Of a stretch of DNA of 64,000 bases, positions 17,546 through 24,038 are shown piece after piece (position 1 is the first letter of the stretch; each line of letters starts with the position of its first letter). Under the pieces are notes generated by a model. That model had not been told where the DNA came from. It searched no databases and saw nothing but the letters and a program-made list of their open reading frames with translations. Position numbers and translations under genes: made by a program. The stretch covers positions 3,456,001 to 3,520,000 of the forward strand of contig OZ219791.1 in the NCBI GenBank assembly GCA_964291215.2. Reading direction: 5' to 3'. Source of the stretch: Alphaproteobacteria bacterium. Its GTDB lineage: Bacteria; Pseudomonadota; Alphaproteobacteria; MPNO01; UBA830.

Positions 17546-17896
17546 ATGAGAGCCGTCGTCAACCTGAATACCGAGCCGCGGCTGCGCGAGGCGTTCGAAT
17601 ACGCGCAGGTCGTCGACAACACCGTGCTGATCGACCGCCGCACTCGGTGGGGCAATCCGTTCCGAATCGGCCAGGACCGCGCGCAGGCGATCGCCCGCTA
17701 CCGCGCCGACCTCTGGCGCCGCATCCGCGCGGGCGAGGTCGCGCTGGAGGAGCTGGCCGGACTGGACGGCTGCTGGCTCGCCTGCTGGTGCGAGCCGCTG
17801 CCCTGCCACGGCGATGTCCTCGCCCGGGCCGCAGAATGGGCATCCGGGCAGTTGGCGCAGCGCAACACCGGCCGGACGGAAGGAGGCGCGTCATGA
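17546..17896 (+). CDS. DUF4326 domain protein
   Basis: IDRRTRWGNPF, LACWCEPLPCHGDVL; GGAGGG RBS. Confidence 0.88.
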   Translation: MRAVVNLNTEPRLREAFEYAQVVDNTVLIDRRTRWGNPFRIGQDRAQAIARYRADLWRRIRAGEVALEELAGLDGCWLACWCEPLPCHGDVLARAAEWASGQLAQRNTGRTEGGAS

Positions 17897-18643: not shown

Positions 18644-18937
18644 ATGCCGTTCGTCACGGTGAAGCCGAAGTTCCAGGTCACCATTCCGGCCGGGTTGCGC
18701 AAGGACATCGATCTTCGCGAGGGCGACCTCATGGAGGCGACGCTCGTGGGCGACGGAATCCTGCTGAGGCCCAAGGAGGTGGTGGACCGCAAGGCATCGG
18801 CCGACCGGATCGCCGCAACGCTTGCGGCGGCTCGGCCTTCGTCCAGGGATCGCGGGCGCACCGAGGACGAAATCATGGAGGAGACGGTCGCGGAGATATC
18901 CGCCTCGCGCCGTGAGCGCCGCGCCCGCGCTGGATGA
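18644..18937 (+). CDS. AbrB/MazE/SpoVT-family antitoxin
   Basis: VKPKFQVTIPAGLRKDIDLREGD..ILLRP; lies upstream of a PIN gene. Confidence 0.88.
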   Translation: MPFVTVKPKFQVTIPAGLRKDIDLREGDLMEATLVGDGILLRPKEVVDRKASADRIAATLAAARPSSRDRGRTEDEIMEETVAEISASRRERRARAG

Positions 18938-19823: not shown

Positions 19824-20492
19824 TCATTCGAGGACGCTGAGAACCTCAGTGCCTCGCTTGACGACAACGCGCTTTACGTGGTCGCGGATGTCTTTGACCG
19901 AACAATCAACGGTCAATTCAACCACACGCTTCCGACGACGACGCCGTTTCCGCCAATGAGCGTACGGATAATCGGAAATACGCGCGAAGATGGTCTCGTC
20001 CCTGGGATGCGGGAACGGCTTGGTGCAACCGCTGTTGATCGGACAGAGCCAAATCGCATCCCGATGCGCTTTAATCAGCGACCTCGTATCGACTTCAAGA
20101 ACATCGTGCCTCTGCTCTCGATAGGCTTTGGCGTTGGTCATCCTGTGGAGGCGCTCTTCCGAAAGCCAAAAGAAGACTTTGGCGTTCAGCAGTTTATACT
20201 AATCCGCCGGGGAAAGATGGTCGGGCAAAGCCCTTCTAAGACCCGAATCGCTCATTGGGATTTGGTCGCGTACAACAGCCCGACACAGACCGTCTCCTGT
20301 CACCTCAACGCTCTTCGGTCGATGTCGGCTTTCGATCTCGGCCCGTTTTGGCGGCTCAACAGCGTAGTGGTCCAAGAGTGCGCTGGTGCTCAGCAGGCCA
20401 TAACGCTTGATCGATTCCCATGAGCCTCGCTCTGCCATGTGATACAGCGTGGGACAGTCAGTGATCAGCTCTTCAAGCTCCGCTTCGGTCAC
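19824..20492 (-). pseudogene. DUF7002-like / DarT-like ADP-ribosyltransferase-fold protein with one in-frame TAG
   Basis: ORFs 20199-20495 and 19824-20141 share a frame; TAG at 20199-20201; LYHMA..SWESIKRYGLLS, VFFW, PINSG, VVEL. Confidence 0.7.
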
Positions 20493-20892
20493 CACGCTCT
20501 CCGATCAATGACGTTACGCCAGCTGAAGTCCGTAGATAGCAGGGAAACAGGTCGACCTGATATTCTCTCGATCTCCTCCACGAAGCTGATAGTATACTCC
20601 GAAAGCTGCTCAAAGCGAAAGGCGTTTCGATTGTTTGCGTCGAAATAGTCGACAAATGTCAGCGCAATGTCGGTCGGACCATTTAGCTGGACGGAATCAC
20701 GAAACTGAAGCCAGTCGAACTCCACTATCCGTCGCGGCTTGTCGGTGGTGGTCGTCCGCTCGGTGCGTTCAAGTTCCTCCAGAGGGACATTGCTGCGCCG
20801 CTGGATTTTGGCCATGTCGACCTCGTGCGCCATCGAACCTGACGGCCCGCCCACCCGGATCGGGTAGGTGCGACAGACCATGATGATTTTTC
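20489..20892 (-). pseudogene. C-terminal part of a divergent adenylosuccinate synthetase (PurA/PurZ-like), truncated by IS66
   Basis: RTYPIRVGGPSG, ERTTTTDKPRRI, NGPTDIALTFVDY; the frame stops at the IS66 terminus. Confidence 0.85.
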
Positions 20893-21129
20893 GTATCTAC
20901 TCACCCCTTGTTGGGTTCTGATTCATAGTGCTCGTTGATGATGTCTGCGGCTTTTCCGTCGAGGGCGGTCTGGGTGGCGACGAGTGGGTTGTAGCCGAGT
21001 GCGGCCATGGAGGTGAGGTAGCTTGAGCTCCGGCACCATGCTTTTGCGTGGAGCGGAAGCATCCGGACACCTTGACCTTTGCCATCCTGATCTTCTGTTC
21101 TCCGGCATTGTTGGTGAAGCTGACATCGG

Positions 21130-22788
21130 GTGCGCCAGGCAAACTGGTGGAATGTGGCCGGGTGCAAGTCCCGGTAGGAAGAGAGGCTAACCACCACTTT
21201 CTCCGTGAACCATGCGTCGGGCGTCGTGAGGCGCTAGGCGAAGCGTTGGGGAGCGGCAGGCCAGGCTATTGAGCCACGAGATGCTTTGAAACCGGAGTGC
21301 CGAGGTCGTGGCCGAAGGCAACGAGCCGCGTTGGTGAGGGGGGCTCCGCGGGGTCCGAGAACCATGGCACGCGCCGAAGCAGGGACCTGGGAGGTCTTGC
21401 CCCTCTGTCGTGGAGGGGCCGCAGAGGAAAGGAACTAATCCGTAAACCGATGATGAACGAGAAGTCAGATTCGGCCATAGTACCGTTGAAGGCGGCGAAC
21501 AAGGGTTCTTCGGAGCCTGCGGAGTTGCTGGAGGGAAGGGCAATGCGGTTGGCCAAAGCCCGCGCCGCGCGCAGAAGCGGGGGTCACAGGCGGCTGAACG
21601 CAGGTAGCGAAGAGGAACCCGGAAGAGCGTCTTTACTCCACCACGTGACGGTCGACGCTCTGCACGATGCGTTCCATTCCTTGAGGAAGGACGCGGCGGC
21701 GGGCGTGGACGGCGTTGTGTGGCAAGCGTATGCGGAGGGTGTGGAACTGCCTGCACGCCCGTGTGCACAGGGGTGCGTACCGGGCGCCTCCATCTCGGCG
21801 GGTTTACATACCCAAGGAGGATGGAGGGCAACGACCGCTTGCCTCGGACAAGATTCTTCAGCGGGCGGTGTGATTCTGGTGCCGCGAGACGGAGTTCCTC
21901 GGGTTTAGTTACGGCTTCCGGCCAGGGCGCATCATGCGCTCGATGCCGTCACGGTCGGAGTGGAACGGCGGAAGGTCAACTGGATCGTTGACGCCGACAT
22001 CCGTGGGTTCTTCGACAATCTCGACCGCGACCATCTGGTCGCGATGCTCGGGAAACGGATCGGGGGGTCTGATCATCAAGTGGCTGAACGCCGGCGTCAT
22101 GGAAGGGACCGACTGGCAAGGGAACACCGCAAGGGGCGATTGTATCGCCATGCCTTGCGAACGTCTACCTGCACTACGTGCTCGATGACTGGTTCCAGAA
22201 CCACTGGCGCAAGCGGATGGCTGGAGGCGACACGATCATTGTCCGCTATGCGGATGACTTCGTGTGCGGCTTTCAGCGTCTGGGCGACGCGCGGCGCTTT
22301 CTCCGAGACCTTGGGGAGAGACTGGCCCACTTGAACTGCACCCGGAAAATCATCGAGTTCGGACGGTTTGCCAGAGCAAACCGCCGGAAGCAGGGCAAGA
22401 CGTTCGACTTCCTCGGCATGACGCACTTCTGCGAACAGACGAGGAAAGGCAGGTTCAGGGTCGGTCCATCTCGCAAACGGGCACCCTGCGGCGGATCAAG
22501 GAGGCCTTGCGCAGGCGGTGGCACGATAACCGGCACGAAACGGCCAAGTGGTGAGTTATCAACGGCTGCTACTACGCCGTTCCAGGAAGCAGCCTGCAGA
22601 AGTTCATACACCAATGCAAACAGCTGCGTGCCCTTCGGCGACGCTCCCAAAAGGACTTCACCGGGGACACAGACACCCTCACCGCTGCCCACTGAGCCCG
22701 TGGCCAAACCAGCGCCTTGTCGTCAGGGGAGGAGCGAACAGCGCACGTCCGGTTCTGTGCGGGGGGTAACCCGGTTCCCTACCGCGAT
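21130..22788 (+). mobile_element. Group II intron (decayed), inserted antisense in the IS66 transposase
   Basis: 5' GTGCG; 3' domain V/VI-like GCACGTCCGGTTCTGTGCGGGGGG..CCCTACCGCGAT; removing it restores RFTDD-PDVSFTNN in frame. Confidence 0.9.
21450..22730 (+). pseudogene. ltrA: Group II intron reverse transcriptase/maturase, multiply frameshifted
   Basis: AAAGVDGV, SYGFRPGR, VNWIVDADIRGFFD, VYLHYVLD, VRYADDF, FDFLGMTH. Confidence 0.88.
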
Positions 22789-23699
22789 GGTCGTCTGTGA
22801 AGCGCAGGTTTTCGTGTTTCACGAGACGTTCGTGCAAGTTGTGCGCGTTTGCGATGCGTTTTCCTTTCGTCGGGATGTCGGGCAGTTCCTTGGCGCCCTG
22901 AGTGAGGGTGGTGCGGTAGCGCCCGGCCTCGTTCAGGGTCTTGGATGCGCTCTTGTTGATCTTGTGGCAGGGAGCAGGCTCTTCATCAGTCGCGCGGTAG
23001 CCTCGACGACGAAGGTCAGTTCGCGCAGCAGGTGGCTGCCGCTGGTGGCTACACTGCCATGTACGAGGCCCAGGACGCCCTTGCAGCACGGGCCGATCTC
23101 TTGCTTGCGGTGCGGGAACTTGCACGTCCCGACGACATGGAGCCACTTTCTGTTGATCCGAAATCATCGACATCGGGCGTTGCAGGAGCACGGCGGCCTC
23201 CTCCCATGACGCATCGTGAAAGCATGGCCGAGGCCTCGGAGAGCTTGATATCGCCTGCACGAGCGCGACGGCACAGGGGCAGCATCCGGGCGACCAGCAG
23301 GGACGAGGGCCTGGATGCCGTACTGCCCGGATGTTGTCGGGGAACCGGCCCCGGGCCTTGCACTTCGGGCATTCCTCGGCGTCGACGCGGCGCGACCTCG
23401 AACACGATGTCGTGCGGCGCTCGACGGGGTCGGCGCCGCAGGCGTCGCAGGCCGCGACCGTCTCCTCGACGATGGTCTTGCGCAGGTTGTCGCCCATCTG
23501 CCGGTTCGGCTTCGGGCCGTTGCTCTCGGCACGCTCTTGTCCGTCTGTGACGGCGGCAGACCGGAGTTCCGGCTCGTGCGTGGTCTTCTCCAGAAGGACG
23601 ACGATGAGGATGTCGAGGACGCGGATCACGGCCTCTTCCGCCACCTTGCCGGCAGCGCCGCGGTCCTGGCCGCTTCGAACTCCTCGCGCGCCGCCCGTC

Positions 23700-23878
23700 G
23701 CCATCACCCGGCCTCGCCGCGAGCATCGCCTGGCGCTCGCCCGGCGGCATCTTCCGGTACTCCGCCTTGCGCTTCATCAGCGCACCGCTTCCCGGATGCG
23801 TTTCCACATACAGATCATGCGGAGCCCCGGAAGCAGCTGGCACAGCCCGCTCGTCGCCTTCGATCCAAAGTAGCCCAC
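23700..23878 (-). pseudogene. Internally deleted Dam-like DNA adenine methyltransferase passenger gene
   Basis: GTG start MGYFGSKATSGLCQ, then HDLYVETHPGSGALMKRK (motif X/I-like) joined directly to a C-terminal-like AEYRKMPPGERQAMLAA. Confidence 0.6.
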
Positions 23879-24038
23879 TGGCGGTCCCCGTCGTTCTCGA
23901 TGACCACCACTAAACGAATCGGCCTGCAGTGTCAAATCTCCACGAAAACCCGTTCGTTGCTCTACCCCGACATCAAGCCGGAACCAGGGGGTGAGCAGTT
24001 ACTTTTGTTCAAGTCAGATTGGTCCAGCTAGTGTCAGG

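Follow-up and report, generated by a model that had tools for sequence, protein, structure and literature searches.

A truncated operon beside an IS66 element

The window, i.e. the whole 64,000-nucleotide stretch of alphaproteobacterial DNA that was analysed, contains on its reverse strand the end of a gene for a PurA-family synthetase, followed by a gene of the DUF7002 family. The features of the locus are the following:

20489..20892, reverse strand: 3′ remnant of a kinase-PurZ0-like synthetase gene (134 codons, about residues 410–543 of 543-aa homologues, 90% identity)
19824..20492, reverse strand: DUF7002 gene (PF22531, E 5e-75; 223 codons, one of them nonsense), coding for a predicted DarT-fold ADP-ribosyltransferase
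20489..20492, reverse strand: GTGA stop/start overlap, with the synthetase TGA over the DUF7002 GTG
20199..20201, reverse strand: premature TAG at conserved Trp99 (TGG in the intact locus L014)
20893..24002, strand not assigned: IS66-family element truncating the operon, starting exactly where the similarity of the relic stops
21131..22788, forward strand: degenerate group II intron inside the IS66 element (Rfam RF02005 at 21165–21363; frameshifted reverse transcriptase with YADD)

Translation of the 20489..20892 segment gave a PurA-family C-terminus containing RTYPIRVGGPSG, TTTTDKPRR and ALTFVDY. The initial annotation had recognised a truncated PurA-family tail overlapping the GTG of the next gene, as the GTGA at 20489–20492 bears out, and had listed these three motifs; all are present, save that three residues rather than two precede the RR pair of the TTTT..RR element. 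It had also judged the tail closer to the short archaeal-type and PurZ enzymes than to proteobacterial PurA. The profile scores agree: PRK04293 (short archaeal-type) ranked first (E 2.6e-20), followed by PurZ (2.6e-12) and purA TIGR00184 (1.2e-10). The closest solved structure is that of Pyrococcus PurA. The LYH..SI..GLLS, VFFW and VVEL motifs attributed to the DUF7002 protein were all found in it. The GTGA overlap was kept in 30 of 30 intact genome loci checked, and presumably couples the translation of the two genes.

The relic is 86% identical in DNA sequence to L014, the similarity stopping at 20893. Its GC content (55.4%; window 62.9%, genome 64.1%) matches the lower-GC patch seen earlier, and the toxin–antitoxin, integrase and IS debris described around it consists of MazE/PIN toxin–antitoxin, integrase and Mutator-transposase fragments to the left of the relic, plus the IS66 element. 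Between 18331 and 19327 the window holds an integrase tail, a MazE/AbrB-type antitoxin gene (18644–18937) and a broken PIN toxin gene; a DUF4326 domain lies near 17600–17830. The same genome also contains an uninterrupted canonical DarT gene, far from the window (C2:102414–103028).

The two 8-bp sequences flanking the IS66 element differ, there being no target-site duplication, which is consistent with an IS-mediated deletion of the 5′ genes of the operon. An IS copy at C2:1865057 shares an 8-mer flank with it, but has this 8-mer on both its sides and is thus a separate insertion. With tblastn, neither the 5′ part of the synthetase gene nor the macrodomain described below was detected anywhere else in the genome, whose contig C1 carries a complete housekeeping purA. 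One IS66 end motif is present in 217 copies genome-wide and the other in 261, and 87 blastn matches were obtained with the group II intron; the genome has undergone a strong mobile-element expansion with widespread gene decay.

The column occupied by the TAG is Trp in 147 of 154 DUF7002 sequences and TGG in L014, in line with the earlier suggestion to read this codon as Trp. An alternative genetic code was ruled out, since the TAG differs from intact relatives by a single TGG-to-TAG substitution. The window copy of the operon is a dead relic, broken by the IS66 element exactly at 20893 and by the TAG at 20199–20201, as the initial annotation had concluded.

The intact operon and its distribution

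The proposal that the pair is the relic of an uncharacterised module held up, the missing parts being the N-terminal kinase domain of the synthetase and an upstream gene. Intact loci contain, in order, a gene for an IrrE/CapP-like metallopeptidase fused to an SCO6735-type macrodomain (IrrE-Macro), a gene for a P-loop kinase fused to a PurZ0-like synthetase (kinase-synthetase), and DUF7002. Among the 82 DUF7002 loci examined (the best 80 of 123 GTDB loci plus two viral ones), a kinase-synthetase gene of about 543 aa lies directly upstream of DUF7002 in 42, and an IrrE-Macro gene of about 444 aa precedes it in 39 of the 82. A Lit/U49-like peptidase gene, or a piece of one, was seen in 10 of these 82 loci, mostly directly downstream. 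Isolates with an intact locus include Sulfitobacter sp. D35, Roseibium suaedae DSM 22153, Novosphingobium mathurense SM117 and Sphingomonas sp. Leaf20.

The linkage is asymmetric. By HMM, 37 of 80 DUF7002 loci lack a synthetase, whereas with the synthetase domain alone as query (best 80 of 532 metagenome hits, 55–98% identity) DUF7002 was found downstream in 69 of the 70 loci with at least 300 bp of downstream sequence, and IrrE-Macro upstream in 65 of the 69 in which the upstream sequence reached 500 bp or more. On plasmids, DUF7002 adjoins the full-length kinase-synthetase gene in all 11 records that contain one. The expected co-occurrence of the two genes elsewhere was therefore found from the synthetase side, and the neighbourhood survey that had been recommended yielded IrrE-Macro and the kinase-synthetase as conserved partners. 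IrrE-Macro was absent from both plasmid variants opened (Rhizobium and Burkholderia).

Across 401 genomes sampled evenly from the class to which the window belongs, nine contain DUF7002 and five match the synthetase profile; three of these five, including the window's genome, contain an operon-clade synthetase, always beside DUF7002. One lineage has a natural 752–757-aa read-through fusion of kinase-synthetase and DUF7002 (three near-identical proteins). The pairwise identities of synthetase and DUF7002 correlate (rho 0.76, 35 pairs, 0 of 2000 permutations), which shows co-inheritance and no more. Truncation as in the window recurs, since just a synthetase tail precedes an open DUF7002 frame in 7 of 23 re-examined loci.

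Some loci depart from the common arrangement. The Rhizobium plasmid variant lacking IrrE-Macro (L206:1580–13356) is flanked by a large unannotated gene plus an adenosine deaminase gene (a RADAR-like reading), a DS-9-like phosphoesterase gene and an HD nucleotidase gene. The operon at L256 has an additional kinase gene upstream, and second CapP/IrrE-like genes lie near some operon copies (L031:11148–12032, L308 and L338).

The kinase-synthetase and its predicted PurZ-type chemistry

The 543-aa protein consists of a P-loop kinase domain (AdkA-like; 3LW7, E 7e-8), with the P-loop present in 121 of 122 such domains, fused to a short PurA-type domain. Ser replaces the catalytic Asp13 (E. coli numbering) in 42 of 42 intact operon synthetases, and is invariant in the 35-sequence synthetase alignments A5 and A6. 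Lys16, Asn38, His41, Thr129, Gln224, Val273, Arg305, Phe331 and Asp333 are each found in 42 of 42, and Thr298 in 41 of 42. The Arg303 column contains Arg in 34 and Lys in 8, which makes ribo- and deoxy-specificity both compatible; the Arg143 column was not reliably aligned. Asp333 is also present in the window relic, and Asp at this position is presumably the GTP-type donor pocket of PurZ0, an enzyme that uses GTP.

Operon synthetases have Asp at the position of PurZ Gln308. In PMC8342488, Thr273 and Gln308 are described as PurZ-specific, with Gln308 disfavouring G as the donor; section 24 of PMC12884076 states an ATP/GTP preference opposite to that of its own introduction. At position 13, 99% of PurA-group sequences have Asp whereas each of the 147 members of the phage PurZ group has Ser (PMC12884076), the Asp13-to-Ser change is the mark of the PurZ group (PMC12884076; PMC8342488), and the Ser13 of PurZ sits beside the 2-amino group of dGMP (PMC8342488).

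Operon synthetases scored 199 and 201 bits against the NCBIfam PurZ model NF038379, below its cut-off of 300 (reference phage enzymes: 368–397), and also fell below the purA and PRK04293 cut-offs. Trees of 144 and 42 rows were built with broken copies, duplicates and the window tail left out; the short Asp13 protein of L209, which passes PRK04293, served as a proxy for archaeal PurA. Operon synthetases and the phage kinase-synthetases of L152, L254 and L255 clustered in a single clade (SH 100 and 99) that excluded nine Asp13 enzymes. The AU test rejected the grouping of operon synthetases with housekeeping PurA (p 3.7e-17); together with the Ser13 of all 42 intact copies, this sets the family of the window fragment apart from housekeeping PurA, as the earlier reading of the tail had it. 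The operon clade lies among Ser13 lineages and outside the reference PurZ and PurZ0 clades, the deep branches being poorly separated. L152 and L255 lie among helicase, primase, polymerase and nucleotide-kinase genes, and L254 near an NDT+MazG-like gene; the shared clade and this replication context would fit a possible capture of the synthetase from phages.

From these active-site residues, the synthetase would join Asp to (d)GMP using GTP, the PurB of the host or of the operon would then convert the product to (d)ZMP, which would be phosphorylated to (d)ZDP by the fused kinase and on to (d)ZTP by host kinases. We regard this route to Z nucleotides as probable. In metagenome loci L309 and L318 a purB gene follows DUF7002 by about 65 bp on the same strand, which would complete the predicted (d)GMP-to-(d)ZDP route within the operon.

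Related genes were seen in other settings. L152, L254, L255 and L263 (IMG/VR) are phages with a kinase-PurZ0-like fusion and no DUF7002 within the fetched stretch, and are candidates for an uncharacterised Z-genome phage lineage; the Z-cluster markers PF18909 and PF04447 were found in none of four incomplete phage relatives, in a search run without a positive control. A second cellular module, in which a stand-alone gene for a Ser13 PurA-like protein is followed by a dCTP-deaminase-like gene (L241:296–3849, L242:946–2472, L208:5296–8057), has a deoxynucleoside kinase, P-loop kinase or HD-nucleotidase as neighbours and forms a separate clade in both trees. It was found in two of the 401 class-sampled genomes and on Sinorhizobium plasmids, and is possibly another Z-linked defence system. 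On a Rhizobium plasmid, L209:5372–12935 contains folE, a short Asp13 purA, purB, queE, queC, and genes for IMP dehydrogenase and nitrile hydratase, a cluster that looks like a 7-deazapurine nucleoside pathway.

DUF7002 is predicted to have a DarT-like fold

A model of DUF7002 was obtained from a 113-sequence alignment (pLDDT 98.2). Its top four structural matches among 48,161 chains (VIA) were all DarT1 or DarT2, headed by DarT1 8BAQ (Z 10.7, rmsd 3.4 Å, 162 aligned residues) and followed by T. africanus DarTG (Z 9.9), Thermus DarT (8.8) and Mycobacterium tuberculosis DarT (8.6). Tpt1 (Z 7.7) and protein-modifying ADP-ribosyltransferases (ARTs) trailed the DarTs, with Z of 6.5–7.7. An earlier, weaker model had given Z 9.6. 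With Foldseek, DarT1 also came first (best E 2.6e-3, TM about 0.37–0.42). The DarT/Tpt1-type ART fold originally proposed for this protein is thus seen in the model, with the DarTs ahead of Tpt1.

At the sequence level, the link to DarT was not significant in profile comparison: only PF22531 was matched in searches that included Pfam DarT PF14487 and PADLOC, and hhalign against a 7-sequence DarT alignment gave E 0.14. No DUF7002 family was found in PADLOC, NCBIfam or PHROG, an Atlas search returned DUF7002 clusters alone, and no literature on DUF7002 was found. The family comprises 970 representatives at 50% identity (E ≤ 1e-10). Given the lack of a significant DarT sequence match and the Z of 6.5–7.7 for Tpt1 and protein ARTs, its substrate could also be RNA, protein or a free nucleotide.

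All 154 sequences compared (108 from operons and 46 solo, with some genes counted twice in both sets) have His19, Asp77, Trp110, Asn154 and Glu193; Arg59 is present in 152. PMC11543638 gives Glu152, Asn104, Arg52 and Met71 as the essential set of DarT1; through a non-significant profile alignment, Glu193, Asn154 and Arg59 of DUF7002 may correspond to the first three. The DarT-family proteins compared also have Asn at the position of Asn154, so this residue is not diagnostic of a purine target.

The catalytic residues are kept in all 46 solo DUF7002 sequences, the frames are open in the seven loci with just a synthetase tail, and no SCO6735-like macrodomain was found in trans in five solo or relic genomes, in a search without a positive control. 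Where the synthetase is absent, cells thus seem to tolerate DUF7002 with no antitoxin; solo copies may otherwise be silent or neutralised in trans. In many Acetobacteraceae a solo DUF7002 gene is fixed directly after ftsY, with intact catalytic residues and no antitoxin in cis (L055, L057, L058, L060–L064 and L066–L069).

The upstream gene codes for a predicted switch and eraser

In the 444-aa protein the IrrE/CapP-like peptidase precedes a macrodomain that matches SCO6735 (5E3B, E 1e-22). The equivalent of Gln85 is present in 91 of 91 macrodomains, those of Gly87 and Asn27 also being conserved. SCO6735 removes thymidine-ADP-ribose, inhibits DarT and needs Gln85; for macrodomains of this type, the same source reports removal of thymidine-linked, not purine-linked, ADP-ribose (PMC9411070). 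A gene for a putative cognate ADP-ribosylhydrolase accompanies the ART in 65 of 69 metagenome loci; it is missing in the two plasmid variants and deleted in the window. The peptidase domain matches the CapP profile (E 1e-17, 191 of 242 positions covered) and IrrE 3DTE (E 2e-4), and all 91 copies have HExxH plus a distal Glu. Among the clustered neighbours of 120 loci, where small genes can escape detection, there is no recurrent CapH-like repressor gene.

DUF7002 would be expected to transfer ADP-ribose onto a nucleic-acid base, and the macrodomain likely to remove the mark; the fold and the invariant His, Arg, Asn and Glu make this quite probable. Activation of the system would fall to the IrrE/CapP-like domain, acting as a sensor of infection or DNA damage.

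Defence genes near the operon

PADLOC (E ≤ 1e-20) was used to look for defence genes in the immediate surroundings, taken on either side as the two closest genes coding for 120 aa or more. The operon set comprised 137 of 140 proteins from 41 loci, after exclusion of an RNR, a TonB receptor and MutS, and without the near-duplicate loci L005 and L008; the solo set comprised 123 proteins from 37 loci. Raw hits were obtained for 15 of 41 operon loci and 8 of 37 solo DUF7002 loci. After removal of ABC-ATPase (mad3), AAA (IetA), RtcR and orphan-methylase hits, the defence-island survey proposed for the homologues gave 12 of 41 against 3 of 37, a comparison with solo loci rather than random genes, and one that is supportive at most since related Acetobacteraceae genomes dominate the solo set. 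The operon hits were Hachiman, Kiwa, pAgo, Gabija, four type I RM systems, a methylase, PDC-S06, PDC-S19 and CapP; a hand-picked Pfam scan added neighbours containing Gabija, AbiJ, Schlafen and adenosine-deaminase domains. Judged by this neighbourhood, a role of the operon in defence is reasonably probable.

The operon might instead be an IrrE-regulated module that serves DNA-damage responses or mobile-element maintenance by modifying or repairing purines, or an ordinary back-up adenylosuccinate synthetase beside an unrelated ART. The IrrE homology would suit such a role, as would the frequent location on integrative elements and plasmids and the absence, in 29 of 41 operon loci, of a credible PADLOC hit within two genes on either side. 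However, Asp13 is lost in every copy, the window's genome has its own PurA, the operon occurs patchily (3 of 401 class-sampled genomes), and its neighbours include Gabija, Hachiman, Kiwa, pAgo, type I RM and Lit-like peptidases. We consider a non-defence role very unlikely.

Proposed mechanism

The three-gene operon is tentatively read as a likely anti-phage writer/eraser of DarTG type coupled to Z synthesis, with Z-marked DNA as the ART target. The dZ would enter newly replicated phage DNA, which as the target of the ART would stall in replication; solo DUF7002 genes would guard against phages that already carry Z genomes. Z-marked DNA is favoured as the target because DUF7002 keeps its catalytic set in the absence of antitoxin and synthetase, and because the cellular synthetase almost never occurs without DUF7002. 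Against it stand the proven activity of this macrodomain class on thymidine adducts, and the lack of any recurrent DatZ-, MazZ-, DutZ- or DpoZ-like partner in the operon (clustered neighbours of 120 loci). The window DUF7002 also gained a stop after the loss of the macrodomain, as a plain toxin would, albeit in a genome full of decayed genes. That dZ in phage DNA is what the ART modifies is possible but rather doubtful. A yet bolder version, in which a captured phage Z pathway serves as a weapon, making dZTP on infection and painting phage DNA with 2-aminoadenine for a DarT-like enzyme that ADP-ribosylates Z, appears somewhat unlikely.

A Z nucleotide (dSMP, dZMP, dZDP or (d)ZTP) could alternatively be a second messenger that activates DUF7002 allosterically, in analogy with the Kongming system, which signals through a base-modified nucleotide. 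The activated enzyme may then ADP-ribosylate a canonical base (T or G) as DarT does, with the P-loop domain acting as a sensor and not as a kinase. The same linkage and the kinase-synthetase-DUF7002 fusion would fit this equally, the kinase domain weakly resembles the P-loop domain of an anti-phage dCTP deaminase model (E 4.9e-6), and the tolerance of orphaned DUF7002 would also be explained. The macrodomain type is moreover a proven thymidine-ADP-ribose eraser (PMC9411070). In the model, however, DUF7002 consists of one domain and has no additional one for ligand binding, and solo copies, whose catalytic residues are intact, would depend on some other activator. Signalling of this kind is, in our view, unlikely.

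Two parallel effectors under one switch may also be envisaged, namely a DarTG-like DUF7002/macrodomain pair and a synthetase that drains (d)GMP/GTP and poisons the dNTP pool, both freed during infection by IrrE-type proteolysis. Pool depletion is suggested by the dCTP-deaminase-like, deoxynucleoside-kinase and HD-nucleotidase genes beside other cellular Ser13 synthetases (L208, L241, L242), and the death of the window DUF7002 after macrodomain loss would fit a toxin–antitoxin pair. Yet the near-obligate adjacency, the conserved 4-nt overlap and the fusion point to one pathway, and solo loci, relic loci and the plasmid variants from Rhizobium and Burkholderia all retain DUF7002 without a cis macrodomain, so that we hold independent effectors to be improbable.

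Should Z-marked DNA indeed be the target, the system would be categorically new: 2-aminoadenine (Z) chemistry would extend to cells, an anti-defence trick would have become a defence, and the solo DUF7002 genes would provide the first immune effectors directed specifically at phages with Z genomes. According to PMC13128860, natural Z-DNA has been reported from phage genomes only, where it serves restriction evasion. A fold and a context can now be assigned to DUF7002, host detection of Z genomes becomes testable, and a Z-specific DNA-labelling enzyme might be obtained. On the plainer reading, the operon would still contribute a third, so far undescribed DarT-like family, whose antitoxin has a new architecture.

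Comparison with known systems

The operon is widespread and apparently unstudied: no published description was found in the literature searched, a scope outside which subscription papers and supplementary system tables lie. It would work like DarTG plus PurZ0, yet falls outside both the DarT and the PurZ family models.

With PurZ and PurZ0 (NF038379; phrog_1211) the operon synthetase shares the short PurA form, Ser13, Thr298 and the catalytic core. Its Asp333 is found in the enzymes of phages Goodman and KingBob, which we label PurZ0-type, whereas Vibrio H3 and S-2L PurZ have Asn/Gln there. Unlike PurZ and PurZ0 it is cellular, fused to a P-loop kinase, below the family cut-off and in a clade of its own. 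The macrodomain differs from SCO6735 and BT1257 in that it forms the C-terminal part of a fusion with IrrE and that its operon also encodes a cognate ART; the equivalent of SCO6735 Val25 is Leu in L004. HExxH and the distal Glu are shared with the CapP/IrrE switches, which differ in that no CapH-like repressor recurs beside the operon.

The closest parallel is with DarTG1 and DarTG2 (PF14487 DarT with NADAR or the DarG macrodomain), which share the DarT-type fold and the pairing of an ART with an ALC1-class macrodomain; DarT and DUF7002 may also share a conserved His...Arg...Asn...Glu set. Unlike DarT, DUF7002 is a separate family without a DarT profile match and often has no antitoxin in cis, and where the eraser is present it is of SCO6735 type and fused to an IrrE-like peptidase, with the kinase-synthetase gene lying between ART and eraser.
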